The position numbers were made by a program, and so were the translations under genes. Shown in pieces: positions 710 to 61,089 of a stretch of DNA of 64,000 nucleotides (position 1 is its first letter; the number at the start of each line of letters is the position of its first letter). Source of the stretch: Bdellovibrionota bacterium (GTDB lineage Bacteria; Bdellovibrionota_C; UBA2361; JBIKUX01); the NCBI GenBank assembly GCA_044347345.1, contig JBIKUX010000005.1, positions 32,001 to 96,000 on the forward strand. The letters are read 5' to 3'. The notes beneath the pieces were generated by a model. The model did not search any database. It saw only the letters and a program-made list of their open reading frames with translations, and had not been told where the DNA came from.

Positions 710-1591
710 TTAAGAGCTTACCGGAAACCTTGTAGACTGACCAATAAAAAAATTTTTTATCCCTGTAAACAAGCCTGTAAACAAGCCTTGAATGTCACTT
801 TTTAGACGCTCTAAAAAACTGGGAGATGCACGATAATTCAATATCATTTTAGGCCGTTCACTATTTATATCAGGCTTCACAGGCCTTACCGAAGACCAAG
901 AATATGACCTATTCGTCGCCAAGCCTCCTCTAACACTCTCATTAGAGTTAGACTCAGCTAGTTGTAAACCTAACTTTGCTAGTTTTTGCTTTTCTTGTCT
1001 TAAACCTTGAATAAATTTGTGCCCTAGTAAAAACTGAAAGCCAAAATTTTCGCCACAAGCGCTATCGTTACTACCAGGAGATGGCATCGAATTAAAAGCC
1101 TCGATAAATTGCCTTGCTGCATGAAAAGCTAAGGTAAATTTAATGTAGGATTGGCTATTGTTATTATTATTACTATTATTGTTGTTATGGCCAGATAGAC
1201 TTGTCAGGGCACTATTTACAAAATTCTCGACATGTTGTTTTAAATTGTATCTTCCTGAACTATCTTTTTTTTCATTATAAAATGTTAACTGCTTAAATAG
1301 TGTGTTACTCTTTCGGAACAGGTTACCGAAAACAACCATTTGGTTCTTATTTAATTTCGGTAAGGAGGGATATTTTGAGATTGTGTCCCAATATTGGGGA
1401 TTAAACTCCAACCCACACAAAGTTAGTATCTTGCGGAAGACAAGCTCTTCTGGAGTTATCTCTTCTGGCCTGATTACAGGCAGGGCCGGCAGTTCGGGGA
1501 AGCTAAAATTGATAGACAAATCAGATTGTGGTTTATCTACAGCACTGTCAACCGAAGCGGTACCTGTAGATACTGGAGCACAAGCAACCAT
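710..1591 (-). CDS. Hypothetical protein with poly-Asn tract
   Basis: 293-aa ORF with NNNNSNNNNNS tract; no recognised motif. Confidence 0.65.
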   Translation of the reverse strand: MVACAPVSTGTASVDSAVDKPQSDLSINFSFPELPALPVIRPEEITPEELVFRKILTLCGLEFNPQYWDTISKYPSLPKLNKNQMVVFGNLFRKSNTLFKQLTFYNEKKDSSGRYNLKQHVENFVNSALTSLSGHNNNNSNNNNNSQSYIKFTLAFHAARQFIEAFNSMPSPGSNDSACGENFGFQFLLGHKFIQGLRQEKQKLAKLGLQLAESNSNESVRGGLATNRSYSWSSVRPVKPDINSERPKMILNYRASPSFLERLKSDIQGLFTGLFTGIKNFFIGQSTRFPVSS

Positions 1592-1713
1592 AAGAAGGAA
1601 TTAATCAAAGGATAGATTTTCTTTCTTTGATTTTAACTGTGAACTAAACGAAGAGAAAAAATTTGCTCCAATATGTGAATTTTACCCACTTGGGAAAATT
1701 ATGAATTCTCAAA

Positions 1714-4700
1714 TCATAAATCTTCCCCTTCATCATTTACAGTTAATTCACTTTCACCAAGCGATTTAGGGAACTTTTTAACAGACCGCCTAGGGATAAA
1801 GTCGAAAGGACTAGTTTTTAAATGAATATCTTGTTGAGGGAAAGATATTTCAATTCCCTCTGAGCGAAAGGCATGAAGGATTGCTACCCGTAAATCACGC
1901 TGAACAATTAGATTATCGCTTACATCCGCAACGAAAACGATTAACTCAAAGTCAAGAGAACTTGGTCCAAAATTGGTCAACAAAACCATCGGTGCTGGAT
2001 CAGCCGTTATACGTACCTCTCTAGAAGCCACACCCTCCAAAACAGCTATAACTTTTTCTGGATTACTCTCATAAGAAACACCAACAAGAATCCGCGCTCG
2101 CAAAATTCTATGCGATAAAGTCCAATTGACTATATTACCAGTCACCAAAGACTTATTTGGGATTATTAATTCCTTACGATCCCAATCTGTAATAGTGGTT
2201 GCTCTTATCCTGATCCTTGAAACGGTTCCAGAAACATTTCCAATTGTGACAATATCTCCCACCCTAACTGGTTGCTCAAACAGAACAATTATACCAGAAA
2301 TGAAATTAGCAAATACTTCTTGCAAACCAAATCCGAGCCCAAATGTAAGGGCTGCTACAAGCCAGTGTACGTTTGACCAAGAGATACCTAAGAGCCTAGA
2401 AGCCAACAGTATTCCGAAAATGATAACTATATACCGCATAAGCGTAGAAGCAGCGTAGTGAGCTCCAGAGCTAAGAGCAATACGACTTAAAATAGCGATA
2501 TCGAGAAGAGCAGGAAGTGTTCTTGTTGCTACAAGAACTACAAAGCATAGCACTCCACCTATCATAAAATCATATAGAGTAAAGGGATTAGAGTCTGGAA
2601 CAACTGATACATTTTCTGTCATCTTATTCGACAAAACCGAATCATTTACGAATGATTTTGCCGCGTCTGAATTTTTTGGAACACTCTTGGAAATATCTTG
2701 GGTAATAGATGCTGATGCTACATCACGGTCTCTTTGACCTATTTTACTGAGAAAAGGTTGGGTCTCTTCGGCTAAAGACGCCACCCTAAAATTCGGGTAA
2801 ATTTGTACTCGCTCCAAAGTAGGAAGAAGAGGAAGAACATTAGACCAAATAAACAGTAATCCAAGAATAAATATTACTGACAAATTACTCCTAAAAAGCG
2901 TAGTAGATTTTTCATCAAGCACATTTCGAGCTATCTCGGAGTCATTATCCTTTTCGAAATCCGGCTCTACTTGTACTTCATTATTTTTACCACTCGCCGA
3001 CATTACTTCGGTAAATGGTCGGTTCTTCGCAGTAAGTAGAGCTCTTACAAATAGCGCGTGTCCAATAGTCAACGCGACCAATAACAATTCAGTCCGCTTA
3101 TAGGCTCCAACAAACCCATGAGCTAAATTTTCATATCCGATTAGTGCTAAAATAGCACATACTACCGGTGATGCTATGAGAACAGTGCTCCAAAAGGAAT
3201 GTAAGCGAACTGCAAGCGGAGTTAAATCACCAGTATTCCGCTTCCAGAGATGAGCAAGCACTCCATTTTTACCAAGAAGACTTGCGACAAAAATTGAATA
3301 TAAACCCAAAAATATTGCAAATAGCAATCGAATAAAAAAATAGATTCCAGGTAGATCACTGTTATCAGCAAAAAAATCGAGTAAAAATCCAGAAACTGAT
3401 AACGGAATAATAAACTTTCTTATTAAACTTCTTACTCTGCGACAAATATCTTTATTCCAAAGAAAATAGATCTCTGCTACACCATTTTCTCTCAATAAAA
3501 GAAGGAACCACATCGGTAGATACAACATAGTAGCAAGTGCAGTAACTGAGCCCCCGATAGACTGCCCAAGATGAGTCTCAACAGAAAGAAGAAACCGCCC
3601 TAAAAACCAAATTCCAAGTGGAATTATCGCTGCCTCAACTGTTAAAATAAAAAGAGCCGCTAAAATCAGTAAGAGTGAGCTTCGACCATAATTTTGAGCC
3701 AATTCTTTTATTCGGTCATAAACCAAAGCTATTTTGCCTCGCATGAAAATAACCACAGCAAAAGCTAACGCCGATGCCACAACACCTACCCACTCCACTG
3801 CAGGTAAACTACTCAAACCCAAAAACAGAGCTCGCCATCTTTTAATCGCAAAAACCTCTGTAATACCAGCTTTAATATCTCTAAGTGGTGGGAAGACTTC
3901 CCGATGAAGAGACCGTAACCACATCACTCTAGGTGCTAAAAAGCTTCTAGCATCCTCGGTCAGATTATTAATTTTAGTTAGACTCTCTACACTTTCACTG
4001 AGAACCGATATTAGAGAACGGTACTCTCCCAATACCTCGGTAATTAATGTTTCACGCTGTGCAACAAGATCGGTAATTGCATGTCGTTGGCGCCAACTAT
4101 TACCATTTTTAATTCCGATAGCCCCCTCTAATAATCGCTTTGTCTCATCAACAGGAGGTAATATTCTATTCCTGCGTTCCTCGATACTAAAAAGGGTAAG
4201 TTGAGCATCCTGAAGCTCGCGCTCTACGGAAAGAATACGCGCGCGCAATTCCGCACTACTAGATAGCTTCCCCTCAAATGATATAAGCAATGGACCAATG
4301 CCGCTACTTCCACCAACAATTCGATATCTCTCCCATAAAGCCGAGAGACCACTTGAAAGCTCCATTTTTTCTTTTCGCGCCAAATCACGTTGAGTAGTAG
4401 CATACGCTAATTGTGCTCTGAGCCCCGTATGACCAGCTCCTTGAATTCGGCGCAAAACAGAGATATCTTCAACAACTTCATAGGCGACTGGACCTGCAAC
4501 CTCTTGCAGTTCTCTTACCTGCGCCAACTCTTTGGTAAATTGCTCCTCCTGCAAGATTGTTAAACTCTTTCTGGCCGATTCGAGCTGGTCATCTAATGTA
4601 AACAAAGCTCTTCTCAGAATAGCGACCTTATTGGGTCTAAGAGCTTGACGTGCAATAATAAGCTCTCGTTCAGCTGTTAGCGCCCGAAGTTTTGTCTCAT

Positions 4701-7841: not shown

Positions 7842-8996
7842 TTAAATGGACAACTTAATCAGACCTTTTTTAAGTTTTAGCCATCGAATCATAACTACTA
7901 CTCGCCATAAAATTTCTCCGTAATCTGCTCCATTTCCACTTAAATGCCTTCGCCATAAAGACATAAGCTCTCGACGACAGAAAAATTCTTCACTTTGAAC
8001 GAGAGTAGAATGAACATAATCACGAAGAACAGTACTCATAAGTTGCCCGAGTGATACTACCGGATATTTAAATAAAAATTCGCTGATATTTGAGCGACTA
8101 GAGCTTCGTATACCAAGACGCTTAATTAGATTAAGCTTACCGCCATGATAAATAACTCCGTCTTCAATTATATCCAACACCTCTTTAGCTAAGAAAGGAG
8201 TTATTACCTTAATCGGAATGCCAGCCTCTTGCACTACTAAACGAATTTCCTCTGCCCTACCATTAAGAAGCATATCCCGAGTAGCTCGCCATGCGGCAAG
8301 CGGAGAGAAATTTCTACAATGCAGATTAGTGATATCGGCTAACCTTTGATAGGATGAGAATATAGCCCCAGTGCCAAGCAGATTTGGATTTAATAACTTC
8401 ATTTTTTGCGTGCCAGATACAAACGGTCCCCGAACAAACTGAAGCGCTCCTGAGGTTACATCTCCCCTCCATATATCATTAAAATTAAGATTACTTGCAG
8501 AATTTCGTAGACAAGACCGCAGCCATTTACAACTTAAAATCCAGCGCCACCCATTAATAACAACTGGACTCTCAACGATATCTCTGCCTGTATGAATAAA
8601 TAATATCCCACTATTTTCATTCTTTAAGTGATAATCATATAAACTAACCACCAAGCTAGGGTCAGCAAGTGGCATAGTCATAGAATGTATTAATCGATCA
8701 ATTAAATGTACAAACGGGGTGTTTTGAATATGTATACTTTGCTGCGACCAATCATAATTAAGATACTTTTCAAAAATATCCTCAAGTCGGTCAAGAAGAG
8801 CCCCAACAGAATAATCTGACTTAATAAAACTATCTGATTTGAGAGTTTCGTTGGTATCTTCTTTAGTGGTAATTACTTTAGTAATCGGGGTAGAGACTGA
8901 TACGGTATCTAATTTACAATCTACTTTATACAGACACTTACCAAGAGATAAATAATCAGACATTTCCTGAAAAAATGCTTTATCGATTACTAACAT
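7842..8996 (-). CDS. Degenerate asparagine synthase (AsnB) C-terminal-like protein
   Basis: MPLADPS, ITPFLAKEV and HLSG..DYGEILWRVVVMIRW resemble AsnB synthetase-domain motifs; no Ntn glutaminase domain or SGGLDS loop. Confidence 0.6.
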   Translation of the reverse strand: MLVIDKAFFQEMSDYLSLGKCLYKVDCKLDTVSVSTPITKVITTKEDTNETLKSDSFIKSDYSVGALLDRLEDIFEKYLNYDWSQQSIHIQNTPFVHLIDRLIHSMTMPLADPSLVVSLYDYHLKNENSGILFIHTGRDIVESPVVINGWRWILSCKWLRSCLRNSASNLNFNDIWRGDVTSGALQFVRGPFVSGTQKMKLLNPNLLGTGAIFSSYQRLADITNLHCRNFSPLAAWRATRDMLLNGRAEEIRLVVQEAGIPIKVITPFLAKEVLDIIEDGVIYHGGKLNLIKRLGIRSSSRSNISEFLFKYPVVSLGQLMSTVLRDYVHSTLVQSEEFFCRRELMSLWRRHLSGNGADYGEILWRVVVMIRWLKLKKGLIKLSI

Positions 8997-10551: not shown

Positions 10552-12186
10552 TCACTTTTTTTCAAGCATAAACTTAGCAGCAGCCCGCACTTGCGGATGA
10601 GAATCACTAACTGAAATAACTTCAAGAACAGACCTCACAGACATCTCATCACTTTCACCCAGAACTACTACCACTTCACGCCTGACTCTATACTCTTGGT
10701 CTTTAGTAAGAGGAGTAAGCTTCTCAGCTTTTTGTTGAGCATTAGCATGCGAAAAACCACGCACAGCGGCTATTCTCACCTCAGGATCACCATGAACAAG
10801 TAAAGGAGCCACTAAATCTGGAAGTTGAGGAATATCCCGTTGTCTGGCCTCATTAATAATAGCTACTAACAGGCTAGCATCTTTTGGTAAAGTACTGAAT
10901 AAAGCAACTAAATTATCGGTAGTTACATCAGAATATAGGCCTTTAGGATGAGGTTGAAGAGAACGACCCTCACTTAAAATTATATCGTCTATTCTGGGCA
11001 GTATAGTTTTAACTTCGTTAGGTTCATTCCAAAATTGTTCAAATAAAAAAAATACGAAACATACGCAGGTCAAAAAAATCATCGCATATAACAAGCTTTT
11101 AAATTCAAAATACCTTAAAGATATCGAATCTAAGGCACCAGAGTATATATTCTCTTTTGTCTTGATTATACTTGTCTGAGCATCTTCTTTTTCTTGAACA
11201 TCCTCAGCATAGGTAATTAGCCCAATACTCTTTCTCGCAACACTAGTTTGACTATTAGTTGAAAAACGAACCGAATGAAGCCCCTTGCTGGTGAGTGCTC
11301 CCAAAACCTCAGAAGCTATTGGACTAGATAAATGGCCACCAACATCACTTACTCTGGCCTTAGCTTTCATTAAGAGTGGGGATAATTCTGAAATTAACTC
11401 TTTTCCAGAGCCAAACCGAAACTTTCTCTCCCGCGCAAATGCTCGAGCAAAAAACTCTTCAAATTCCTTTGTAGCATAAACGGGTTGAGCAACTTTGTGT
11501 TGATAAACTGATACCCAATTACCGGCCAAAATACGAGAGATAATTTCTCGAGAAGAATCGCCACTAAAAGGCTTGGTACAATACAGAATCTCATATAGCA
11601 CCACGCTTAAAGCAAAAAGGTCGGTCTTACCATCCAAAGATTCGCCCTTTATCTGCTCTGGCGCCATATAACCTGGTGAACCGATACTTTTATTACCCTC
11701 AGACTTACGCCAACGTATCTGAGAAATTCCAAAATCTAATACTCTCAACCCCCCGTCTTGTGTCAGAAAAATGTTCGATGGCTTTATATCACAATGAACT
11801 ACTCCTCGGCTGTGAGCATAATCAAGACTGCTTGCTATTAACGCCAGAATCTCGAGAGTACGATCTGGAGTTATATTATTAGCCTTATTGATAAAGGATC
11901 TAAGAGTCTCACCTTGAAGATACTCAAGAACTAAATAAGGAGAGAAAGAAGAGTCATCTTGAATACAATCATAGATAACCATGATGTTTGGGTGACTTAG
12001 CTGAGCTGCTAAACGAGCCTCTTCAATAAAATTTGCATTTTCTCGGCTGGAGTTAGTAACCACACACTTAATGGCCACATACCTACTAAGGGCAGCATCA
12101 AAGCCTAGGTAAACCACCCCCATTGCTCCTTTACCGACGAGCCCTGTGATGCGATACTTGCCTATGACTGATGGAACATCGCTCAT
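10552..12186 (-). CDS. Hanks-type Ser/Thr protein kinase with TM and C-terminal HEAT repeats
   Basis: GKGAMG, VAIK, HCDIKPSN, DFG, GSPGYMAPEQ; TM near aa 365-385; DPEVRIAAV/EYRVRREVV/HPQVRAAA HEAT-like motifs. Confidence 0.93.
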   Translation of the reverse strand: MSDVPSVIGKYRITGLVGKGAMGVVYLGFDAALSRYVAIKCVVTNSSRENANFIEEARLAAQLSHPNIMVIYDCIQDDSSFSPYLVLEYLQGETLRSFINKANNITPDRTLEILALIASSLDYAHSRGVVHCDIKPSNIFLTQDGGLRVLDFGISQIRWRKSEGNKSIGSPGYMAPEQIKGESLDGKTDLFALSVVLYEILYCTKPFSGDSSREIISRILAGNWVSVYQHKVAQPVYATKEFEEFFARAFARERKFRFGSGKELISELSPLLMKAKARVSDVGGHLSSPIASEVLGALTSKGLHSVRFSTNSQTSVARKSIGLITYAEDVQEKEDAQTSIIKTKENIYSGALDSISLRYFEFKSLLYAMIFLTCVCFVFFLFEQFWNEPNEVKTILPRIDDIILSEGRSLQPHPKGLYSDVTTDNLVALFSTLPKDASLLVAIINEARQRDIPQLPDLVAPLLVHGDPEVRIAAVRGFSHANAQQKAEKLTPLTKDQEYRVRREVVVVLGESDEMSVRSVLEVISVSDSHPQVRAAAKFMLEKK

Positions 12187-12206: not shown

Positions 12207-12237
12207 TGATATTATTATACTTAGTATAATAATATCA
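12207..12237. promoter_or_regulatory. Perfect palindrome (15-bp arms, 1-nt centre) upstream of the kinase; candidate operator
   Basis: TGATATTATTATACT-T-AGTATAATAATATCA; contains TATAAT on both strands, 20 nt upstream of the kinase ATG. Confidence 0.55.
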
Positions 12238-12272
12238 CTTTTTGCTAGCTTTTTTAAAAGCTGTGCCTACAG

Positions 12273-12325
12273 AGAGTGTGCGCCAAAGAGTGTGCGCCAA
12301 AGAGTGTGCGCCAAAGAGTGTGCGC
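12273..12325. repeat. Tandem repeat, 14-bp unit x ~3.8
   Basis: AGAGTGTGCGCCAA three times perfect plus AGAGTGTGCGC. Confidence 0.97.
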
Positions 12326-12358
12326 TAGTCAGTCTTAGCAGATCCTATTCTGCAGACC

Positions 12359-12643
12359 CTATTCTTCTGATAAGCCTGTCTCATCAGGAGAAGAACTACC
12401 TTTTTGCTGCATCGCTCGCCAAGCCGCTTCAGTAAAGCGCTTTATGATACGGCCTTTAGAGAGATCATAAGGAGAGATTTCTACTATTACATGATCCCCA
12501 GGAAGTACCCGAATATAAAATCGCCTCATCTTACCTGCTAAATAGGCAAGTAACTCATGCCCATTATCACACTCAACTTTAAATGTTGTGTTAGGGAAGC
12601 ACTCTTTTACTACCCCGTGCATTTCAATACCGTCTTTTGCCAT
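12359..12643 (-). CDS. infA: Translation initiation factor IF-1
   Basis: [48 protein letters not shown]. Confidence 0.97.
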
Positions 12644-14836: not shown

Positions 14837-16732
14837 TTATACTGTTCGAGCAAACCAGTCGGAAAAATTCTTTACCGACAAAGCAACACTTATAGGACGG
14901 CCATGTGGGCAGGCACTAGAGTATTTTATTTCATCAAGAGATTTAGCCAAGGCGTTAATCTCAAGTGTTGATAGTTTATCGCCTCGACGAACACTGGCAT
15001 GACAGGCGAGACGAGATAAAAGCATATCTCGCGCTCTGATTGGCGTATCACTTGCAGAATCTTCAGTAAGTTCTTGGATTGTAGCAGTTACTACAGATGC
15101 TACCGAATCAATAGTCATACCACTGGTAAAAAAAATAGGCGCAATTCCAATTATATTTACAGAGCCGCTAGTAACCTCTATTTCAATACCTACTCTAGCT
15201 AACATACCAGCCATTTCTTGGAGAAGTTTCTCTTCAAAAAGGTCTGGAACTGGTAAAGCAAGCGGTAAAAGCAACCGTTGAGTTGAAGGCTCTTTACCAG
15301 TGTCACGATTTGAATTGAACCTAACCAAAAGTCGGTCAAAATTGACTCTCTCATGAGCGGCATGCGCGTCTAAAATAATACATTGATTATTCCATTCACC
15401 AACAAAGTAGACACCAAGCACTTGCCCAATAAATCTTATATCTTGATATCTAAAAGTCTCACAAAAAGGCATTGGACTGCTATTACTATCAATCTCTAAT
15501 TCTGGTATGCTGGTAACTTGGTTTTCTTGTGGATACTTAAATAATCTCGGCATAGAAGAGGGAAAGCTACCAACAATAGAGCTATCAACAACAGAAATCT
15601 CTGCCCTATAATAATTACTTTTGCCTAGCTCATCTTGAGAGATAAATCCAACAGAACTATCTCTAAAATTTTCGACTCGCCCTGAATCAACATCTCTCCT
15701 CACGATACTAATTGGAGCGCGAAAAGCAGCAAAACCTTCGACCACGGCATCGCGCACAAGAGAGTAAATATCACCGCTGTTAGCAAATCTCACTTCTGCT
15801 TTCTGAGGATGAACATTAATATCAAGTAGAGATGCAGGAAGAGTAATACTTAACATTCCAACCGGTAATTCTCGCTCGCGAAGCGCAGTGCCAAACCCCT
15901 CTCGCGTTGCTCGCACAATACCAGCATCACGAATGAGACGGTTGTTTACCAGAATATACAAAGGAGACGCGATGCTTCGTGCATTTGCAGGGTGACCAAG
16001 AAGTCCAGTGACAGACAAACAATCCCGACTAAGAGAGATGGGCACTAAGGTACCGTGTAAAATATGCCTAGCTCTATCAATAATACTTGAGGCAGGAAAC
16101 ACAGAAAATATCTCCTTACCATCATTTGATAAACAAAACCTCACCGATGGTGCCGTAAGTGAGGTTCCAGTCACCCAATTAAGTATTGCAGAAAGCTCGG
16201 TTCGCTCACTTTTTAAAAATTTACGTCGCACGGGGGTATTAAAGAAGAGATGATGCACAGCCACCGAGCTACCAACTTTAGCGGCAGGAACAGAATCTAC
16301 GGAAATTACCTTTCCACCGTGAATACGTACGACTGTCCCTTCTTTAGTAACAACGGACTTTACTTCTGGCTCTTTCGTCAGCAAATCGCGAGGAGCAGTA
16401 ATAAGCTCTACCCTACTTACCGATGCAATTGCCGCCAAAGCCTCTCCTCTAAAGCCTCGGGTAGATAATAGGAGCAGATCATCAAATTCAGCTATCTTCG
16501 ATGTAGCATGACGCTCAAATGCAAGAACTGCATCATTACGATCCATGCCTATTCCGTCATCTATCACGCGAACTAAGCGAGTGCCTCCCCCTTCTAATGA
16601 GATTAAGACTGTGCTACTGGATGCATCTAAGGAATTATCAACTAATTCTCGAACAATCGAGACCGGGCGTTCTACAACTTCACCTGCTGCAATCTGAGAA
16701 GCTACAATATCGGAGAGAACACGCACTGGCAT
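14837..16732 (-). CDS. mutL: DNA mismatch repair protein MutL
   Basis: IAAGEVVERP, GFRGEAL, DAHAAHER, ACH, CPHGRP. Confidence 0.96.
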   Translation of the reverse strand: MPVRVLSDIVASQIAAGEVVERPVSIVRELVDNSLDASSSTVLISLEGGGTRLVRVIDDGIGMDRNDAVLAFERHATSKIAEFDDLLLLSTRGFRGEALAAIASVSRVELITAPRDLLTKEPEVKSVVTKEGTVVRIHGGKVISVDSVPAAKVGSSVAVHHLFFNTPVRRKFLKSERTELSAILNWVTGTSLTAPSVRFCLSNDGKEIFSVFPASSIIDRARHILHGTLVPISLSRDCLSVTGLLGHPANARSIASPLYILVNNRLIRDAGIVRATREGFGTALRERELPVGMLSITLPASLLDINVHPQKAEVRFANSGDIYSLVRDAVVEGFAAFRAPISIVRRDVDSGRVENFRDSSVGFISQDELGKSNYYRAEISVVDSSIVGSFPSSMPRLFKYPQENQVTSIPELEIDSNSSPMPFCETFRYQDIRFIGQVLGVYFVGEWNNQCIILDAHAAHERVNFDRLLVRFNSNRDTGKEPSTQRLLLPLALPVPDLFEEKLLQEMAGMLARVGIEIEVTSGSVNIIGIAPIFFTSGMTIDSVASVVTATIQELTEDSASDTPIRARDMLLSRLACHASVRRGDKLSTLEINALAKSLDEIKYSSACPHGRPISVALSVKNFSDWFARTV

Positions 16733-20331: not shown

Positions 20332-20754
20332 TTAAGCAGCGTTTGGACTAAGTGGCTCAGATAACTCATCTTGAGCTAAGTTATCTCGGGCAACAGAGCT
20401 AGACTGCTCTGTAGTGCTCAGTGTTTTCCCATCAGTCGTTTTCCCGTCAGCGCGAGGATCTACTGAACCTCCACTAACACTCCCTAGTAAAGCATTTGCT
20501 CGGTCTGCTAGAGCTTCTTTTTGTTTTAACGCAGCATCTTCGCTCCTCTTGCGAAGCTCTTCATGAGACATGAGATACACCAAACCATCTGCAATTTCTC
20601 TTAGAGACACAACAACAGCTTTGTTCCCTCTCGCATCAGGGATAAGCACCTTTCCGCCGTGGAGCAACTGTTTGGTACGCTTTGCTGCTAATTGTACAAG
20701 AGCAAAACGATTTCTCTCATGAGCTAGACAATCTTCAACGGTAATTCGCGCCAT
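20332..20754 (-). CDS. rpoZ: RNA polymerase omega subunit with C-terminal extension
   Basis: [22 protein letters not shown]; upstream of rel. Confidence 0.95.
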
Positions 20755-22856: not shown

Positions 22857-22898
22857 GACTCCATTACCTCTTCAGTCTTTATTACCTCTACAGTCTTT
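22808..22898. repeat. Two separate 18-bp tandem duplications either side of the start codon
   Basis: CCCTACCTCTGTCCTC(G/A)T x2 (22808-22843); ATTACCTCT(T/A)CAGTCTTT x2 (22863-22898). Confidence 0.9.
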
Positions 22899-23610: not shown

Positions 23611-23767
23611 ATTTTTCGCTTTGGCTGCCCTAACGAAATACGACCTCTGATTTCGTAGAATTGCACTCTCTTAGAATTGCGCTTTCTAGGGAGCTTCTTA
23701 TATCATTGCAAAAGAAACACCAGCTTTTACATTTGGTTTTCTAACTTTCATTTTTGGGGAATTTCTA

Positions 23768-41272: not shown

Positions 41273-41406
41273 AAATTAATCTCGAAAATATAACACTAGT
41301 TAAACAAGTTAAACCGAATCTTAAGATACATCGTTTAAATACTAAGACAAGAAAAAAAGATGCTAGAGGCTTACAAAATTTAAGTGTTAATAATATCAGA
41401 TAGTTA

Positions 41407-43243: not shown

Positions 43244-44309
43244 CCATACCCATTTTTCGCTCAGGTGGAAGCAATCCCTCAGGCCGCCACCTGATCATTA
43301 AAATAAGAGCTAGTCCAAACACAAAATATTTCCAATTGTTTGGCGATGCATACACAGAGCCTCCCGCTACTACCCCTTGCACAGATAGTAACCGCGTTAA
43401 CCATCCAAGGAATAATGAGGTAAATCCCACGACTAATGCAGTCCCTAAAACGCTGCCCACAAGACTGCCCAGACCTCCAGTTATCACTATACACAAGGCG
43501 ATAATAGATACTTGAAAATCAAAGTTACTCGGCTCACCACTAGTACCGAGCGAAGCCGCCCACAATGCCCCAGATAATGACGCTAGTGCCGCCCCAAGAA
43601 ATAGAGCTCGCATTTTATTTTTTGTCACCGATATCTTCATACAACCGGCAACAATTTCATCAAGTGCCACTGATCTCCAAGACATTCCTTGAGGCGAGCG
43701 CTCGATATTAGCGATTGCCCAAGTGATAAAAAATACCATAACGCAAAGTGTGTAATACCATAGTACGGGGCTGCCGGTTACAAGCGATATCCCGAACAAT
43801 TCGGGAGAAGGTAAGGGAGAAATACCTTGCGTGCCTTTGGTAATAACTTCAAGGTTCTTCAAAATATCCTGAACTATTTCACCAAATCCTAAGGTAACAA
43901 TAGCTAAATAATCTCCTCTTAATCTGAGGGTAGGAATCCCCAAAAAACAGCCAAACGCGCCTCCAAAAAGCCATGCTATAATCAGAGCTAACCACCCATT
44001 CAACTGAAAGGGATAAATTTGAGCGGTAAGAATAGCATAACTATAGGAACCTATAGCCATAAATGCGGCGATACCTAAATGAAGCAATCCGGTAATACCA
44101 GTTATTATGTGCAAAGAAAGACCAAGAAGAGTAAAAATGAGAATGTTCTGAACCGGTCGAATAAAATTACCATTCGCCGCAAATATAATATCTATTAGTG
44201 GTAAAAAAGAGAGAAACAAAGCATAGAGCAAGCCAGCTTTACGATGCGAAAACCTCGGAATCCCTGAATCGTCCAAACGCTCTGAAAATATTGCCATCAA
44301 GTACGCCAC
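43236..44309 (-). CDS. livM: Branched-chain amino acid ABC transporter permease
   Basis: LRLRGDYLAIVTLGFGE, GGLGS, RPEGL. Confidence 0.92.
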   Translation of the reverse strand: MAYLMAIFSERLDDSGIPRFSHRKAGLLYALFLSFLPLIDIIFAANGNFIRPVQNILIFTLLGLSLHIITGITGLLHLGIAAFMAIGSYSYAILTAQIYPFQLNGWLALIIAWLFGGAFGCFLGIPTLRLRGDYLAIVTLGFGEIVQDILKNLEVITKGTQGISPLPSPELFGISLVTGSPVLWYYTLCVMVFFITWAIANIERSPQGMSWRSVALDEIVAGCMKISVTKNKMRALFLGAALASLSGALWAASLGTSGEPSNFDFQVSIIALCIVITGGLGSLVGSVLGTALVVGFTSLFLGWLTRLLSVQGVVAGGSVYASPNNWKYFVFGLALILMIRWRPEGLLPPERKMGMGA

Positions 44310-46558
44310 TACACTTTTTCTTTAATTTCACTACCCATTATGCCCCCAGGCCTGAATATCAAAACGGCTATAAGCACGGAAAATACCACAACATTAGTCC
44401 AGCTAGTTGCAATATAGTGATCACTAAAAGCCCGCAGAACACCGATCAACAAGCCGCCAATACAGGCACCAAAAAGGCTTCCAATACCACCAAGAACCGC
44501 AGCGACAAAGGCGTCCATTCCTACTCTGTAGCCCATCTGAAAAAAAACTGTGCCGTTAAACAAGGCGTACGCTGTCGATGCTACTCCAGCAAGAGCGCCA
44601 CCAAGAAAAAAAGTGCGGGAAATTATTTTATCGACAGGGATACCCATTAACCGAGCCGCATCTACATTTTGTGCAACTGCTCGCATCGCCATACCCGTTT
44701 TAGAGTATTTGATAAAAATGGATAGAGATAATAGCAGTGGAATCGTGATAACTGTCACCAAAAGATCTCGAGTGGTAAATGTAAGCCCTGACCCTGCGCT
44801 GAAAAGATTAACTGAAGAAAACAACGTTGGAAAATTCTTTGGAGCTGATGCAGCGTGCCCATTATCAAATACTTCAAGTGGCAAACCGCCCCAAAAAAGG
44901 CCGATATTGAGAAAAATAAAAGACACCCCTATTGCCGACACCAGCGGGGCTAAGCGAGAGGACTGCCTTCTCAGAGGACGATAAGCATAACGCTCAACCA
45001 AACAATTTAAACCACCAGTAAATAAAGGAACTAGTACCACTAACAGTATCCAAGTCAAAGGAGATGTTGAACCGAATATGCCGACAATCGTTAAAGCTAA
45101 AAATGCCCCAAGCATAAACAAATCACCGTGAGCAAAGTTAATAAGCTCAATGATGCCGTATACCATAGTGTACCCGAGCGCAATCAGCGCTATTATTGCA
45201 CCATTAGAGAGCCCGGTTATAATCTGCTGGCGCAGTGTAGCTGAATTCGAAAATGCTGCCTCCTGAAAAGAGCCAACATCCTGAAAAGAGCTAACGGCTG
45301 CCTCATCAGTAGTATTTCTATTTGCAGCGGCAGGAGGAGTCACTATTTTACTCAAAAGAGAGTCATCTAGCAGCTCAACAAAATAAAAATTACCATTTTT
45401 TATGCCATTAAGACTCATCGTCTTAAGAGAAATATCACCGCTATCTTCAAAACTCCAAGTACCTAAGGCACCAGTGAAATCTTTGATATTCCGAACTTCT
45501 GCTATAATCTTACGCCTGTCTGCACTCTTAGCTCTGCGAAGACCTTCCAGAACTACCTTTGCAGCCTCATAACCATAAATTGCAAATGCCTCTGGCTGGA
45601 CGCCAAAGGTTGCTAGATATTTCTTCACAAAAACTGCACCTAGCCCCGTCAATTTTTGAGGCGGAAGACCGCCGAAGGTAAAAAAAGTATTTCCCTCCAA
45701 AACAGCAGCTCCAGCAGATGAAATAAAAGCCTGCTCAAAGCATCCATCTGGAACTATTAAAGTTGCGGTCACGCCGGAGTTACGCAAATCTTTTGCCAGT
45801 TGACCCCCGTTAGTTTGCGTAGTGCCACCGTAGTAAACAATATCCGTTCCTCGACCACGAAGTAATGTAGCTAATGCCCTATAGTTAGAAGCCTTAGAAT
45901 CAATGCCTTCATAACCTACTACTGAACCTCCGCGCATTTTAAACTCACGGGCGAAAAGATCCGCTAAGCCCTTACCGTAAAGCTCTCTATCATGAATAAC
46001 AAAGGCTCTATGTTTTCCTTGGGCACGCGCCCATTGAGCCGCTCGAGGGCCCTGAATATCGTCAGTAGGAAATACTCTAAAATAAGTTACCTCACCACTC
46101 GGTCGGTAAACCAAGGGTTCGCTAGCTTCACCGAATCCAGGTTTAGTCAAACCTGGCCAGGAATTAGCCGGGCTAACCATAAGCAGCGGTGCTCGGTTAA
46201 GTTTAGGCATTGAAATTTTTGCAGCACCTGAGTTGTAGGTTCCAATGTAGGCTATAACACGAGGGTTAGCTATGGCACGATCAGCATTAGCGCCCTCAAC
46301 TGCTGGATCCCAAGCTCCACGCTCAGGAGTAGCGTCATCCCAATCTTCGTAACGAATATCAAATTGAGATAAAGATGAACGCTCTTCCTCTATGGCAAGT
46401 GTAATACCATTAACTATTGCTGAGGTTTGTGAGTGCACACTTCCAGTTCTCGGCAAACTTGATACAATAATTACTTGATTATCGATTGCGTAACCGACTT
46501 GGAGAAAAATCAAGGTAGATAAAAGAGATAAAGTTAAGAGAAAAAAAATTGCTCTCAT
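44309..46558 (-). CDS. Fused LivK-type substrate-binding protein and LivH-type permease
   Basis: N-terminal IGTYNSG, FRV.PTDDIQG, YGYEA; C-terminal ALGYTMVYGIIELINFAHG, GMAMRAVAQN, VLGGIGS. Confidence 0.92.
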   Translation of the reverse strand: MRAIFFLLTLSLLSTLIFLQVGYAIDNQVIIVSSLPRTGSVHSQTSAIVNGITLAIEEERSSLSQFDIRYEDWDDATPERGAWDPAVEGANADRAIANPRVIAYIGTYNSGAAKISMPKLNRAPLLMVSPANSWPGLTKPGFGEASEPLVYRPSGEVTYFRVFPTDDIQGPRAAQWARAQGKHRAFVIHDRELYGKGLADLFAREFKMRGGSVVGYEGIDSKASNYRALATLLRGRGTDIVYYGGTTQTNGGQLAKDLRNSGVTATLIVPDGCFEQAFISSAGAAVLEGNTFFTFGGLPPQKLTGLGAVFVKKYLATFGVQPEAFAIYGYEAAKVVLEGLRRAKSADRRKIIAEVRNIKDFTGALGTWSFEDSGDISLKTMSLNGIKNGNFYFVELLDDSLLSKIVTPPAAANRNTTDEAAVSSFQDVGSFQEAAFSNSATLRQQIITGLSNGAIIALIALGYTMVYGIIELINFAHGDLFMLGAFLALTIVGIFGSTSPLTWILLVVLVPLFTGGLNCLVERYAYRPLRRQSSRLAPLVSAIGVSFIFLNIGLFWGGLPLEVFDNGHAASAPKNFPTLFSSVNLFSAGSGLTFTTRDLLVTVITIPLLLSLSIFIKYSKTGMAMRAVAQNVDAARLMGIPVDKIISRTFFLGGALAGVASTAYALFNGTVFFQMGYRVGMDAFVAAVLGGIGSLFGACIGGLLIGVLRAFSDHYIATSWTNVVVFSVLIAVLIFRPGGIMGSEIKEKV

Positions 46559-50024: not shown

Positions 50025-50068
50025 TTTCCTATGGTGCTTATTTCCGACGGTGCTTATTTCCTACGGTG
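50025..50068. repeat. 16-bp tandem repeat x ~2.75 filling the pstS-pstC gap
   Basis: TTTCCTATGGTGCTTA / TTTCCGACGGTGCTTA / TTTCCTACGGTG. Confidence 0.9.
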
Positions 50069-51161
50069 ATGGCACGAGCGAATTTTGCAGAGGAAGTAAC
50101 CCAACTTCTGTGGCTAACCTGTTTCTATTGGCTCTTATAAAAGTCATAAACCGATCTACTATTTTCAATTTTTTGGGATTACCCCCTTGAGAAATGGGGT
50201 CTTTCTGAGAAGTTTGGTAGTAAATAAATAGTGGCCTAGTAAGTGGCGCATAGTCACCAGAGGCTACAGATTCATAAGACGGAAGTACGAACTTTTTTAT
50301 TGGTGGGCGAGGATCTTGAACAAAAGAGTTCGCCTGTGATTTTACCACTCCTGCAATACTTTTTTGCTCAATTGTATTTTGTTCTACGATCTTTTGTTCT
50401 AAGATCTTTTGTTCTATTGCTACTGCTCTTAGCTTGTCTCTTTGCGCAAAATAATAAGAATATCCCAGATACCCTAATGCATATTTATTCCGCGATACAG
50501 CCGAAACAATTAAATTGTCATCTTCGCTACTGGTAAAATCACTCCTTGTTGCACCCGCAGTACCGACTACTACCTTTGTGAAAAAATCAAAGGTACCTGA
50601 ATCAATACCAGGACCAAATAGATTAATCGGAGTGTCAGGCCAATTAGAACGAATATCTCGCCAATTTTTAATTTTGTGTGCTTTATATCTAGGTGCTGGC
50701 TGCCAAAGTGACTTTAGCTCGTCAAGAGTTAATTCATAAGCCCAATCGTTATCACGATTAACGACTATAGCTATTGCATCAAGCGCTACTGTCTCCTGCT
50801 TAAAATTAATTCCGCGAATTTTACAATCATTAGCCTCCTGAGATTTCATCTCACGAGAAGCTTGCGCTAAATCTATCTCACCTCGACAAAACCGCTTCAG
50901 TCCACCACCTGTACCTGACACCCCTACGGCCACTCTAATATCGGGCATTTCTTTAAGAACTGCCTCGGCAGCCGCCTCCATAAGTGGATACACCGTGCTT
51001 GACCCATCTATCCTTAGTTCGGGAAAATTATTAACACCGATACCAATCTGACCAATAAATAAGGTCGCCAAAAGGGATGCATATACAACTACCACCAGAC
51101 CAATAAGAAAGGTTTTCATCAGATTTAAAAGACTACTTTTTAGCTCTTCGGTCTTGAACAT
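50061..51161 (-). CDS. pstS: Phosphate-binding protein (true start probably ATG at 51119)
   Basis: IDGSSTVYP, SGTGGG, DSGTFDFF, SEDDN, YAPLTRPLFIY. Confidence 0.93.
   Translation of the reverse strand: MFKTEELKSSLLNLMKTFLIGLVVVVYASLLATLFIGQIGIGVNNFPELRIDGSSTVYPLMEAAAEAVLKEMPDIRVAVGVSGTGGGLKRFCRGEIDLAQASREMKSQEANDCKIRGINFKQETVALDAIAIVVNRDNDWAYELTLDELKSLWQPAPRYKAHKIKNWRDIRSNWPDTPINLFGPGIDSGTFDFFTKVVVGTAGATRSDFTSSEDDNLIVSAVSRNKYALGYLGYSYYFAQRDKLRAVAIEQKILEQKIVEQNTIEQKSIAGVVKSQANSFVQDPRPPIKKFVLPSYESVASGDYAPLTRPLFIYYQTSQKDPISQGGNPKKLKIVDRFMTFIRANRNRLATEVGLLPLQNSLVPSP
50362..50421. repeat. In-frame 15-bp tandem repeat x4 (EQKIL)
   Basis: TTTTGTTCTA(C/A)GATC units; protein IEQKILEQKIVEQNTIEQKSI. 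Confidence 0.88.
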
Positions 51162-54801: not shown

Positions 54802-55581
54802 TTACTCAGGCTGAGTAAAACCGGCTTCTCTCTGTGTCTGTAATTTACGAGCCGCGGCATGGAAAGCTTCTCTAGCCAATACATCAGTATTTTTCCAGCC
54901 TGTCCCTGTACCACCACCCTCAGCACGTTTCTTCAGTGCCAATAGGTTATCTGTAAACGCCTTATCATGAAATGAGTAGCTTGCTCGCCACATCGTTTTC
55001 CCGTCTGAGACCCGAACTAAAACCATCCGAAATGCTACTTCTCCCGGACTAGCCGAACCCATTTGCGACCCTTCTCTGCTTGAAAATCTATCTATATCTG
55101 AGAATAAAATAGCGTCTATCCCCTTTGAACGAGCCGTTAATAAGATTTTTTGTCGCCATTTTTGCGATTGTTCAGAAGAAGCACTCAATTTTAATCTTGG
55201 AGCTTCTAATAAATCAAATATCTCTAATGAAAGTTCATCTCGAAAAGCTTGAACTATCTCCTGAGATAAGCGCTCGCGGTCAGACGTCCCTCCAGAAAGA
55301 GCACCATTGTTAAAGTAGGGAGTAACCACACCGATTGATGTTAACTTTATAAGTTCACGATAATCTGAATTTTGTGTGTCGAGCGACCGAATGGAATCAA
55401 TACCTTTAGCAGTTGTAGTACCAGCATACTCCATGCAACCCACTACAAGAGTTAAAACAGCCGCTAAAAAAACCCTTTTTTTGTTAATTAGGAGTTTTTT
55501 GCCAAATTTAAGTAAACAAGGAGCAAAATTGGAACTTCTCAATAATTCTGGACGGTAAATTTTTTTCAAAACGTTTTTCAA
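54802..55581 (-). CDS. Putative lipoprotein
   Basis: LVVGC lipobox; IDAILF..I.RF..REGS..EVAF.MVLVRV.DGK.MW pattern; AAGGAG before the TTG start. Confidence 0.7.
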   Translation of the reverse strand: MKNVLKKIYRPELLRSSNFAPCLLKFGKKLLINKKRVFLAAVLTLVVGCMEYAGTTTAKGIDSIRSLDTQNSDYRELIKLTSIGVVTPYFNNGALSGGTSDRERLSQEIVQAFRDELSLEIFDLLEAPRLKLSASSEQSQKWRQKILLTARSKGIDAILFSDIDRFSSREGSQMGSASPGEVAFRMVLVRVSDGKTMWRASYSFHDKAFTDNLLALKKRAEGGGTGTGWKNTDVLAREAFHAAARKLQTQREAGFTQPE

Positions 55582-55595: not shown

Positions 55596-55625
55596 AACAG
55601 TCTATTGCTTAACAGTCTCTTGCTT
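55596..55625. repeat. 15-bp tandem duplication
   Basis: AACAGTCTATTGCTT / AACAGTCTCTTGCTT. Confidence 0.88.
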
Positions 55626-56020: not shown

Positions 56021-56464
56021 GTGGCAAAGCCAACTGAAAAGATAATTGATGCGCTTACTCAACTCATGGAAGCTTTTGTAGAGCTTCGTGACAGTATAGA
56101 GGAGAGTGAGGAAGGGGAAGGTGAAGAAGAGAGTGAGCTTGAGGATGATGAAGAAGGCGGCCATCAGTCGCGTTTGGTATCCGAATTCAGAACTGCTCTT
56201 GACTCGGTTATTGAAGCCGAAGATTTTTCGCCGGATGATTTTGCATCTCTCATCTCATCTCTTACCGAAGCCCTTGAAGAAGTAGATCCAACTATTTTTG
56301 AAGATGAAGGAGAAGAGGAAGACGAAGAATACGAAGAAGAAGACGACGAAGACTACGGCGAGGACGACGAGGATTACGACCTCGATGAAGACGACCTAGA
56401 CGAAGACGACCTCGATGAAGATGAAGAGGAAGAGGAAGATGAGGATGAAGATGAAGATGACTAA
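56021..56464 (+). CDS. Hyper-acidic small protein
   Basis: GGAG SD before GTG; helical N-terminal part; 46 of the last 54 residues are D/E. Confidence 0.85.
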   Translation: MAKPTEKIIDALTQLMEAFVELRDSIEESEEGEGEEESELEDDEEGGHQSRLVSEFRTALDSVIEAEDFSPDDFASLISSLTEALEEVDPTIFEDEGEEEDEEYEEEDDEDYGEDDEDYDLDEDDLDEDDLDEDEEEEEDEDEDEDD

Positions 56465-56582: not shown

Positions 56583-56646
56583 AAGGCCTTACAGTAGCAA
56601 GGCCTTTCAGTAAAAAGGCCTTGCGGTAAAAAATCTTGTGGCAAAA
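56583..56646. repeat. Intergenic 16-bp degenerate tandem repeat x3-4
   Basis: AAGGCCTTACAGTAGC / AAGGCCTTTCAGTAAA / AAGGCCTTGCGGTAAA plus a decayed fourth copy. Confidence 0.85.
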
Positions 56647-56693
56647 AAAGTAGTTGATGTGGTTTAACCTGCAAGCTCTACCAACTAAAAGCT

Positions 56694-59006
56694 GTGACTA
56701 AGAGACTGTGGGTAAATAGACTGTGGGTAAGAAACTACGTGTTAGAATCTGTGCCCCACTCAAAATTGCATTCCATACCATTTGGCTTCTCGCTTCCATT
56801 GTTCATCTTTGCAGCTCTCGCAACTTTTATAGCTCGTTTTGAATGTTTTGATCGAATCAATACTCACTCACTAAGCGGTACGTTAGGAGATGGGGGCATC
56901 TATTTATGGCTCTTATCCGTTGTGCCGCAAGCCTTAGATCCCGAAAATTGGTACAATGTTCCTGCCTTTTACCCTTACGGTCAGGCCTTAGCTTGGAGTG
57001 ATAATTATATTCTACCCTCCCTGCTATTAATGCTGCTAAGGTCATTTTCGACTCTTGCCCTACCCGTTCAATCACTAATTGTAGCACACAATGGTCTACT
57101 ACTTGGGGCTACTGCTCTTACTGGTTGGTGTGTCAGTCGCCTGACTTTTCGTTTAACTGGCAGTTTACTACCAAGTTGTTACTCGTGTTTAGCCGTTATC
57201 TTCTGTCATTTTTTTATTGAGCATTTGGGTCATCCACAACTTCAGTATGGATTTTTTTTACCGCTATCGGCAGAAGTTGCTTTGCTGATAACGTCTGCAT
57301 CGACATCAAAATCGGACAAAAAAGCTACAAAGATACTGAGAGCTGTGCTCCTAGGTATAGTCGTTGGATGTGCCTTCCTAACCGCGGTATACTACGGAAT
57401 TTTTTCAGCCTCTATTGCCATAATTATCCTTCTTTGTTGGTTAGCAACTGCATTTAGTCGCCGTTGTATAGCTGAGCTAACTTATCTGGTCTTTGGAGGC
57501 ATTCTCGGATTTTCTCCTTTTATCCCTTTTTTATTGCCTTATTTTGCTACCGAGGCAACTTTTGGACAAAGAAATCTTTACGAAGCTTATTACTTTTCAG
57601 CACATCTTTTATCTTATCTTTCAGCAGGACCGCTCCATACCTATTCTGGTATACTTGGAAAATCAACCTGGTCTCACAGTGAAGCACATCTGTCATTAGG
57701 AATTATAAGCCCAATTCTCCTTCTTTGGGGTGCAGTTTCAACAAACTATTTACATAAATATAAAATTGGAATAACCGTTTGCTTTGCTTCCTTAATGTTA
57801 GCACTTGCTACTAATATTCATGGCTTAGGAATTCCTAGTCTAAAAGTTGCAAGCGCATTTCTTGCATGGATAGCTCTTACAAGTGGTGTTTTTGTATTTA
57901 TCCAAAGCCAAAAACTTACTAACTCAAATTCCATCCATTTAGGGGCATTAACGCTAGTAATACTTACTTCAATTATTTTCTCATTAGGACCTCTTGGTAA
58001 TCCAGTTAAAGGTGAACTCGCTTTAGGTCCATTTGCAGTAGCTCATCAATTCATACCTGGTATGGGGGGGATTAGAGCTGTAAGCAGATGGGGAGTGGTG
58101 GTATTAATCTTTTTACCTGTTATAGCTGCAGTCCTGGCTCACAGGGCTTATAAACAAATAGCCCTAGCAAAAACATACAAACGAGCCTTTTTTCAATATT
58201 TTTTTTGGTTATCCTTCATGATTCTAGTGTTTCTAGAGCAATACACCACAGGATACGGGAAAGGGATGGAAGAATTACCGAAGATTCCTCCCGTAGTACA
58301 CAGTATGACAAGAAGTGAAAAAAATTCAGGAGCAATCATTTTTCTGCCGATGAGTCATCCTCTTAGCTCTACTGGAGAGATACTATCTTGGAGCGATTTT
58401 ATTCGTCGAAATATCACCGCTATGAACGCATCAGTTCACTTAAATATGCCTACTGTTAATGGATATTCGGGAGTAAAAACAAAAATTATGCGAGACTTAC
58501 CAAGAAGAACTCGCTTGTTTCCTGACGAAAGAAGCTGTACAGCTCTTCAAGAAATATCAGGATTAAAATTTGTAGTTTGGGAACAACACAATAAACTCGT
58601 GATACCAAAATCTTTACCATCATGCCTTAGCTATCTAGGTCATGACGATACCGGCTATCATCTATTTAAAATAAAAGATGAGGTTCCGCTAAATGGTGAA
58701 CGCACCGTAATAGCCTCTCCAACATCAACAAGTATTTTACTACAATTTAGTGGCTGCAACGCAGTTACTATCCAAGAATCAATTAATAAAAACGTCATTT
58801 CGACTAGCGATCTTAATCTAGTTGGTCATGCTACAAAAAGAGTTATTTGCCCATCTAAAATTACATCAACAAAAATGGCACCGCGCTATTGGCAAATTAA
58901 ACCTAGCTCATCAAAGCCAGAAAATACCTGTTTTTTCTCAGTAACAAAAGCCCCATCTGTGCCCTATTCGATTGATGAAATTGCTGGTAGATGCTTTTTG
59001 GATTAA
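56694..59006 (+). CDS. Polytopic membrane protein, probable GT-C fold glycosyltransferase (YfhO-like)
   Basis: [12 protein letters not shown] loop, [26 protein letters not shown], many TMs; start uncertain. Confidence 0.65.
56703..56732. repeat. 15-bp tandem duplication with AGACTGTGGGTA core
   Basis: AGACTGTGGGTAAAT / AGACTGTGGGTAAGA. Confidence 0.88.
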
Positions 59007-60733: not shown

Positions 60734-61057
60734 GATTACTAAGCAATTATTCAGAAATAAAATTTATTGAAACCACAGGGTCGATTACAGGCTCTGACTT
60801 AGATTCCACCCCTCTTGATGTATTGTCAAATTTATTGATTGAGCTCGAATAATTTAGGATCTTATAAAGTAATTTTCACTTTATTCTTTACGCATTGAAG
60901 AACCTAAAGAATAAATAAAAAGGCCGACAAAGAGAAGTATAAGGAGTCTAGCAAATTGGTGACTTGCATTTCCTGACACCTTCAGAGAGAGGCCGCTTGC
61001 AAGACTAACTAATATAAGTAGTGAAAAACCGATAACTACGTACCGAGAAATATCCAT

Positions 61058-61089
61058 AGCACCTTACTTAAACAGCACCTTGCTTAAAA
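61058..61089. repeat. Intergenic 16-bp tandem duplication
   Basis: AGCACCTTACTTAAAC / AGCACCTTGCTTAAAA. Confidence 0.85.

Follow-up and report, generated by a model that had tools for sequence, protein, structure and literature searches.

Several described systems leave short direct duplications in DNA, and they provide the reference for the present analysis of tandem arrays with units of about 15 nt in a Bdellovibrionota bacterium, carried out on one 64-kb window (the whole stretch analysed: positions 32,001 to 96,000 of contig JBIKUX010000005.1, assembly GCA_044347345.1) from one genotype. Target duplications are 15-17 bp long in the ISTde1 subgroup of the IS1202 family (bioRxiv 10.1101/2022.12.17.520857) and 14-15 bp long with casposases (PMC6977970). 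In mammalian cells, small tandem duplications result when staggered breaks are filled in and then end-joined (PMC8355091). Yeast without the flap nuclease (rad27) acquires ABA-to-ABABA insertions with inserts of 1-91 bp (PMC5677150), and tandem duplications from yeast repair synthesis have a mean length of 12 bp and about 6 bp of microhomology (bioRxiv 10.1101/2023.10.09.561461). Based on the evidence from the window, we conclude with high confidence that a real mutational process obeying a length rule, combined with a filter of selection, underlies the arrays.

Long-stagger integrases (ISTde1, casposases) share with the window arrays a near-fixed direct duplication of 14-17 nt without junction homology; their copies, however, flank an element with terminal inverted repeats, whereas the copies in the window adjoin each other, and neither an element nor a transposase nor a target motif was seen there. 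Staggered-break end joining shares the exact local doubling, its length in that system being equal to the overhang. That work is eukaryotic and used engineered breaks, whereas for the bacterial window a source of the 15-16-nt stagger and a joining system would have to be postulated. The rad27 signature resembles the arrays in its bias towards insertions, in the form of short direct duplications, and in that one site can be affected again, but its events are bounded by short direct repeats over a broad size range, whereas those of the window have no junction repeats and measure 12-18 nt. The yeast template-switch duplications likewise have a short and narrow length, ascribed there to the architecture of the synthesis machinery, and differ in the microhomology of their junctions, of which the window junctions have none. 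In microsatellites and variable-number tandem repeats (contingency loci), slippage alters the number of copies, as it probably does in the window arrays of three to five copies, but microsatellites consist of 1-6 nt units in many reiterations, in contrast to the complex 12-18-mers, mostly in two copies, at unrelated loci of the window. Duplication mediated by direct repeats fits the arrays poorly, since 15 two-copy events show no bounding repeat and the lengths of 12-18 nt are not broad. A literature search found no description of a homology-free duplication signature of about 15 nt for bacteria; most subscription journals lay outside its coverage, and the evidence from it is weak.

A narrow range of unit lengths

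The tandem duplications in the window are real. At a score of at least 40, Tandem Repeats Finder (TRF) returns 23 non-overlapping arrays with periods of 12-18 nt, where 50 order-3 Markov shuffles average 0.96 and never exceed 3; at a score of at least 50 it returns 17, ten of them with period 15, against 0.2 in 30 shuffles. With the stricter threshold, 20 unrelated control loci of G+C content at least 0.35 (288 kb) contain 1.33 arrays per 64 kb and 60 AT-rich loci contain 3.1 per 64 kb. Control periods range from 14 to 30 nt, whereas those of the window concentrate at 15. TRF misses two-copy arrays whose unit is below about 10 nt, and a second scan was therefore run at a uniform false-positive rate, covering every period from 10 to 45 with the match threshold set for an equal per-position rate. 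It yields one hit at period 12, two at 14, seven at 15, five at 16 and four at 18 (shuffles, about zero), and none in the window at periods 10, 11, 13, 17 and 19; the hits at period 16 include two overlapping ones on one array, and one hit at period 18 is a low-complexity acidic tail. At longer periods the hits are multiples of arrays already counted or lie in the acidic tail of low complexity. The narrow range of lengths is real on both sides and is not a detection artefact.

An initial annotation of this DNA had proposed a peak of periods at 14-18 nt over background, distinct from slippage of 1-6 nt. Both proposals are borne out, the first by the excess over shuffles and control loci and the second by units of 12-18 nt in two to five copies, in excess at 14-16 and 18 nt. 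Among the 23 arrays it had named, 17 are recovered by TRF at the same place and period and three more by the uniform scan (22808-22843, 23656-23687 and 56703-56732). The other three are weak individually, being at or near chance level at 31455-31484 (12/15 matches), 33412-33441 (13/15) and 27403-27438 (14/18), the last of which, in PurB, is backed independently by protein alignment. New to the set are 12338-12365 (14 nt), 15565-15595 (15 nt, MutL) and 56311-56353, together with a doubtful 21-nt array at 25183-25222. The arrays are given below with the agreement between copies in per cent, the strand of the host open reading frame (ORF) in brackets, and the method of detection.

762-788: 12-nt unit, 2.25 identical copies; C-terminal part (residues 268-277 of 293) of orphan ORF 710-1591 (-), whose protein is present in this form in public collections; TRF
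12270-12325: 14-nt unit, four copies, 98%; intergenic, upstream of the Ser/Thr kinase gene 10552-12186 (-); TRF and uniform scan
12338-12365: 14-nt unit, two copies, 93%; intergenic, 12 nt from the preceding array; TRF and uniform scan
15565-15595: 15-nt unit, two copies, 88%; MutL residues 380-390; TRF
20418-20452: 15-nt unit, 2.3 copies with one indel; C-terminal tail of RpoZ, residues 101-113 of 140; TRF
21947-21991: 15-nt unit, three copies, 90%; middle of orphan ORF 20922-22856 (-), PVAAQ-type repeat; TRF and uniform scan
22808-22843: 18-nt unit, two copies, 94%; first 17 codons of ORF 20922-22856 (-), putative start; uniform scan
22863-22898: 18-nt unit, two copies, 94%; intergenic; TRF and uniform scan
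23127-23157: 15-nt unit, two identical copies; hydrophobic N-terminus, residues 8-18 of 168, of orphan ORF 23104-23610 (+); TRF and uniform scan
23656-23687: 16-nt unit, two copies, 88%; intergenic; uniform scan
25183-25222: 21-nt unit, 1.9 copies, 79%; orphan ORF 23768-25795 (+), membership doubtful; TRF
25831-25856: 13-nt unit, two copies, 85%; intergenic; TRF
27403-27438: 18-nt unit, two copies, 78%; PurB residues 381-392; protein alignment
31455-31484: 15-nt unit, two copies, 80%, at chance level individually; glycosyltransferase ORF 30867-32054 (-), residues 191-200
33180-33224: 15-nt unit, three copies, 87%; glycosyltransferase ORF 32100-33356 (-), residues 45-59; TRF and uniform scan
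33412-33441: 15-nt unit, two copies, 87%; last residues (330-340 of 343) of glycosyltransferase ORF 33399-34430 (-)
36515-36589: 15-nt unit, five copies, 80% overall, the two inner copies identical; in frame in glycosyltransferase ORF 35540-36835 (-), YPQSK-type repeat; TRF
42578-42616: 15-nt unit, 2.6 copies, 79%; residues 210-222 of a LivG-like ABC ATPase; TRF
45261-45296: 18-nt unit, two copies, 89%; residues 421-433 of ORF 44309-46558 (-), between its two domains; TRF and uniform scan
50025-50068: 16-nt unit, 2.75 copies, 89%; pstS-pstC spacer, overlapping the pstS stop by 8 nt; TRF and uniform scan
50362-50421: 15-nt unit, four copies, 73%; PstS residues 247-267, EQKIL-type repeat; TRF
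55596-55625: 15-nt unit, two copies, 93%; intergenic, just upstream of ORF 54802-55581 (-); TRF and uniform scan
56311-56353: 15-nt unit, 2.9 copies, 79%; Asp/Glu-rich tail of ORF 56021-56464 (+), of low complexity and ambiguous membership; TRF
56376-56422: 15-nt unit, 3.1 copies, 84%; acidic tail of ORF 56021-56464 (+), DLDED-type repeat; TRF
56583-56646: 16-nt unit, four copies, 73%; intergenic, downstream of the acidic-protein ORF 56021-56464 (+); TRF and uniform scan
56703-56732: 15-nt unit, two copies, 87%; first 13 codons of, or 5' to, ORF 56694-59006 (+), putative start; uniform scan
61058-61089: 16-nt unit, two copies, 88%; intergenic, ilvD-mltA; TRF and uniform scan

Filtering by reading frame

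Long ORFs cover 57,422 nt of the window and hold 18 arrays; the intergenic 6,578 nt hold nine, at a density 4.4 times higher. The unit length is a multiple of three in 18 of the 18 ORF arrays, as had been claimed for coding sequence at the outset (P = 2.6e-9 under the expectation of one third), compared with two of the nine intergenic ones, whose units measure 13, 14, 14, 15, 16, 16, 16, 16 and 18 nt (mean 15.33, standard deviation 1.5). From a normal curve fitted to these nine intergenic lengths, 18 in-frame events are expected to divide into 1.2 of 12 nt, 13.9 of 15 nt and 2.9 of 18 nt, and the arrays observed in ORFs number one, 13 and three, plus the doubtful one of 21 nt. Since the counts in ORFs match the prediction from intergenic DNA, a single length distribution, filtered by frame, explains both classes. 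Two of the ORF arrays, those at 22808 and 56703, fall within the first 17 codons of ORFs with putative starts.

Duplication junctions

When a duplication arises by slippage between short repeats or by flap misalignment, the periodicity extends over two units and over the repeat as well. For the 15 two-copy events the matched span minus the unit gives a mean of -0.87 nt, and simulated clean duplications with the same number of mismatches give a span excess of +0.33 (standard deviation 0.58). The two-copy events are without junction microhomology. Copies abut exactly, without filler bases, and no base preference appears at the boundaries in 48 boundary views, the lowest P among 16 positions (0.009) not being significant after correction. 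The absence of microhomology and of a boundary motif from two-copy events is new here. The constraint from microhomology shifts the balance from slippage and flaps towards an event of the staggered-cut type, and flap processing, one of the causes suggested in the initial annotation, is weakened by the same 15 events. Pairs of direct repeats of at least 11 nt within 4 kb show no excess (103, against 67-110 in 20 shuffles), and among the inverted repeats in the window none made a convincing resident element.

Placement in proteins

Arrays within ORFs sit at tolerant positions, namely loops, linkers, tails, one hydrophobic N-terminus, the extreme ends of two proteins and lineage-specific insertions. 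The PurB copies are part of an eight-residue insertion without counterpart in ten of 11 aligned homologues, the eleventh having a different insert in the same loop, and the PurB model is coil there, with a predicted local distance difference test score (pLDDT) below 50 at residues 388-392. In PstS the four-copy pentapeptide repeat lies inside an insertion of 36-40 residues after a conserved strand. It is missing from all nine aligned homologues, the closest of which (57-61% identical) has a shorter, repeat-free insert, and the PstS model is unstructured, with pLDDT below 50, at residues 256-276. By alignment and model, the copies in both proteins are lineage-specific insertions, placed in loops that are disordered, which is the outcome expected when the comparison with orthologs was first suggested.

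The MutL array lies beyond the N-terminal region matched by NCBIfam models (about residues 1-335), and the closest MutL relative, 41% identical, is too distant to show whether relatives share duplications. We take this MutL (14837-16732, -) to be of the endonuclease type, its C-terminal metal-site motifs being kept by eye with one substitution in the first; the type would suggest mismatch repair without MutH. The RpoZ array is beyond the conserved 60-residue core. Of two glycosyltransferases aligned with the structure database, one had no match and the other only weak, N-terminal alignments; these suggest that the repeat lies within some 32 inserted residues and are too weak to be given weight. 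The LivG-like ABC ATPase (42125-43243, -) has 372 residues against about 255 in its family, with about 113 extra residues around the repeat, between the Walker A and signature regions, relative to a solved homologue; the extra segment has long hydrophobic stretches that look membrane-embedded. RpoZ (140 residues against about 60-72), PstS (366 against 295), LolA (254 against 202), PurQ (260 against 222) and MltA (408 against 366) likewise exceed their family profiles. Such overlong conserved proteins fit a long-term build-up of insertions. That arrays occur even in conserved enzymes, as had been noted from the sequence, is seen in PurB, PstS, MutL, RpoZ and several glycosyltransferases.

Divergence and copy number

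Identity between adjacent copies extends from 100% (762, 23127 and the inner copies of 36515 and 12270) down to about 73%, which indicates events spread over time and agrees with the earlier description of copies from perfect to decayed. Between copies there are 51 transitions and 50 transversions. In nine arrays the copy number is 2.6-5. Repeated independent hits on the same site are implausible, and we infer that these arrays probably expanded by unit-length slippage after a first duplication.

Two qualifications apply to the initial annotation. It had listed 22808-22843 and 22863-22898 separately, but the two are in register, the latter array sharing 11/18 identity with 22826-22843, and they probably represent one older 18-nt array of about five units in which units were re-duplicated. 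No such relation holds for the neighbouring 14-nt arrays at 12270 and 12338, which match at 6/14 positions (P = 0.82). The units had also been described as mostly unrelated, which is correct for most, but those at 36530-36587, 56703-56732 and 55597-55621 share sequence. The first two have a common 12-13-mer on the + strand at loci 20 kb apart; 55597-55621 is an inverted copy of 56700-56724, 80% complementary, with the same A/C difference between the first and second unit. This inverted pair brackets a 1.1-kb segment carrying the acidic-protein ORF 56021-56464. The related arrays at 55597, 56700 and 36530 could delimit a small mobile or regulated unit, or could result from templated copying between loci.

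Words of the ACAGTC type occur in four arrays against 0.16 expected, which is not significant relative to the best word of random sets and was discarded as a shared motif. The best shared 7-mer occurs in four of 25 array regions, with P = 0.068 after correction (500 random sets), and the best 6-mer has P = 0.22. A shared 7-nt core is present in 22863-22898, 55596-55625 and 56703-56732, in each case directly upstream of an ORF start and in sense orientation. It could be a cis-regulatory motif of the three ORFs; its enrichment is not significant once corrected. The arrays do not form a dispersed family of short repeats, of the repetitive extragenic palindromic (REP) or miniature inverted-repeat transposable element (MITE) kind, only three or four of them being related.

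Discussion

The tests run all support the core of the initial annotation, namely that about 15-16 nt of local sequence are copied, sometimes iteratively, and that frameshifts are selected out. The arrays are in the main independent local duplications, and very probably stem from a lineage-specific process with a length ruler, which gives a raw unit of about 15.3 ± 1.5 nt and acts independently of particular sequence and of pre-existing short repeats at the junction. Purifying selection very probably discards the two thirds or so of copies that shift the frame, as well as copies in structured parts of proteins. The survivors are insertions of four, five or six residues in loops, linkers, tails and signal-peptide-like ends, with all lengths retained in intergenic DNA. 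Arrays that have reached two copies probably grow to three to five through slippage by whole units, and point mutations erode them. Regarding the molecular origin of the copies, the fixed length together with the lack of homology and of a motif leads us to prefer staggered nicks followed by fill-in over slippage or unprocessed flaps. Opposite strands would be nicked about 15-16 nt apart (one and a half helical turns), filled in and rejoined, by the same chemistry that produces target-site duplications and the duplications at staggered breaks. The staggered-nick origin, including the enzyme and rejoining step that it presupposes, is a possibility that we hold with clear reserve; process, filter and staggered-nick origin blended into one account make the best overall explanation, a tentative one that falls just short of an even chance.

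Several observations weigh against staggered nicking. A pure staggered cut does not explain arrays of three to five copies, and a second process is therefore needed. A sequence core common to three or four arrays is not expected from a local process that is purely random. Arrays of 14-16 nt occur in other bacteria too, at about one tenth of the density in the window. The enzyme and the blunt-end rejoining step have no direct support in the window: no nuclease, transposase, casposase or end-joining gene was found among its ORFs scanned with NCBIfam and Pfam, and no element flanked by such repeats is present, which counts also against transposon footprints. The data comprise 64 kb of a single genotype and about 24 founding events.

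Replication error, in the form of slipped-strand mispairing or ligation of an unprocessed 5' flap through weakness of the FEN or Pol I 5'-nuclease, with the length set by flap or patch size or by replisome architecture, is a distinctly unlikely alternative to staggered nicking. E. coli polA mutants in the 5'-nuclease have more duplications. The growth of arrays to three to five copies is typical of slippage, and another point in favour of replication error is the uniform GC skew, which places all events on one replichore. The window's MutL looks intact, a point against such error; mismatch repair is not known to handle loops of more than a few nucleotides, however, and would not act on 15-nt loops anyway. 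Loss of the flap nuclease leads to an insertion-biased spectrum (PMC5677150), and template switching behind a repair polymerase to duplications averaging 12 bp (bioRxiv 10.1101/2023.10.09.561461). These errors, however, act between short direct repeats, converting ABA to ABABA or using about 6 bp of microhomology, of which the 15 two-copy events show none, and the inserts of rad27 spread over 1-91 bp where those of the window are confined to 12-18 nt.

An improbable source of the duplications is a cut-and-paste element with 14-17-nt target duplications that excises exactly and leaves the doubled target behind. This cause, also named in the initial annotation, fits the fixed length and needs no microhomology, and a tyrosine recombinase and a VirD4-like coupling protein show past mobile DNA in the window. 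It finds no such element, transposase or occupied site in the 64 kb, and the exact junctions without filler bases speak against it, as do arrays of three to five copies, for which a single site would have to be hit several times. Transposases of the IS3 and IS481 kind move by copying out and are not known to excise from the donor, which again counts against footprints. Families with a 14-17-nt stagger exist in many phyla, but no target motif and no tRNA genes occur in the window, and casposases prefer the 3' ends of tRNA genes (PMC6977970).

Very doubtful, too, is an ordinary input of duplications with a monotonic length spectrum that is retained unusually through weak selection or a low deletion rate, the peak arising from poor detection of copies below 12 nt and rapid loss of longer ones. 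Control genomes do hold 14-16-nt arrays at low density, and the many window proteins that exceed their family profiles suggest tolerated insertions. The scan at equal false-positive rate, however, gives none at 10-11 nt and one at 12 nt, although in-frame copies of 12 nt should be no less tolerable than those of 15 nt; on the long side, arrays of 21-30 nt persist in controls but are missing from the window, apart from the doubtful 21-nt array and multiples of shorter ones. Functional retention (regulatory sites 15 nt apart, useful peptide repeats), assembly or amplification artefact and chance can in effect be dismissed as general explanations: the three arrays with a 7-nt core just upstream of ORF starts, the pair inverted around a gene and the arrays in low-complexity acidic sequence might speak for this group of readings, but the units are otherwise unrelated and have the same lengths in enzymes, linkers and spacers, an artefact would neither respect reading frames (18/18) nor carry diverged copies, and chance is excluded by the shuffles.

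Genomic setting and significance

The window has a G+C content of about 41% and a negative skew throughout, by which all duplication events are placed on one replichore. It contains 45 long ORFs, 34 of them on the minus strand. Family scans covered 43 ORFs with NCBIfam and 18, mostly the same, with Pfam; a search for RNA families and tRNAs in the window found none. Housekeeping products are AccA, MiaA, MutL, HtrA, RelA/SpoT, RpoZ, PurQ, PurB, LolA, FtsK, IlvD and MltA, and a polysaccharide gene cluster and Liv- and Pst-type transporters are also present. In ORF 44309-46558 (-) a periplasmic binding-protein domain (residues 35-372) is fused to a LivH-type permease (residues 446-733). The VirD4/TraG-like coupling protein (36970-39468, +) and the tyrosine recombinase (62399-63538, +) lie amid housekeeping genes and may be left over from conjugative DNA that had integrated there.

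Neither Pfam nor NCBIfam gives a match for seven long ORFs (710-1591, 7842-8996, 20922-22856, 23104-23610, 23768-25795, 54802-55581 and 56694-59006). For the 644-residue orphan ORF 20922-22856 (-), a word-indexed protein search returned neither a homologue nor the protein itself; it has one predicted membrane segment and a C-terminus that looks SH3-like by eye. Two spacers, 28579-29431 (853 nt) and 40763-41406 (644 nt), contain short ORFs only and no RNA-family match, the second holding an 89-residue coiled-coil-like ORF that resembles its neighbour 39533-40762 in style. The 549-nt spacer of both 14-nt arrays also carries a perfect, AT-rich 15-nt inverted repeat with a 1-nt spacer (12207-12237). 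An exact 16-nt repeat is shared by two unrelated genes (15767-15782 and 40271-40286), with looser copies at 45430 and 58410; a rough estimate puts the chance expectation at about half a pair.

The lineage is sparsely represented. The closest PurB homologue is 69% identical among 5.8 billion proteins and 57% identical in one-genome-per-species contigs, and for MutL and PstS the nearest sequences elsewhere are at the 41% and 57-61% given above. Moderately similar proteins carry the names Bdellovibrionales, SAR324, Deltaproteobacteria and unclassified Pseudomonadota, and a scan of genome collections matched only distant species. The same window proteins are present in four public sources (NCBI, JGI/IMG, ENA and Logan). 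A look-up matched seven of ten window proteins, the other three not being found with the start codons used, and the clusters of the seven (start-codon variants, fragments and one point variant) represent a single genotype.

If the pattern extends through the genome, it would constitute a clean natural mutational signature of fixed length, without junction homology or sequence preference, and would implicate a particular enzyme or repair pathway in a lineage that is poorly sampled. The furthest-reaching form of staggered nicking, somewhat unlikely in our estimation, is an undescribed "ruler" mutagenesis in which strands nicked one and a half turns apart, anywhere in the chromosome, are filled in to seed duplications of 15-16 nt. 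Its enzyme would perhaps be a long-stagger integrase, domesticated or acting hit-and-run, or a repair nuclease coupled to end joining, and one duplication about every 2.5 kb would amount to a natural pentapeptide-insertion scanning of the proteome. The arrays, if genome-wide, could serve as markers for strain typing. For the proteins of the organism, the process, if true, would mean a steady supply of five-residue loop insertions, and with it a natural data set on the positions at which proteins tolerate insertion and on the birth of tandem peptide repeats.

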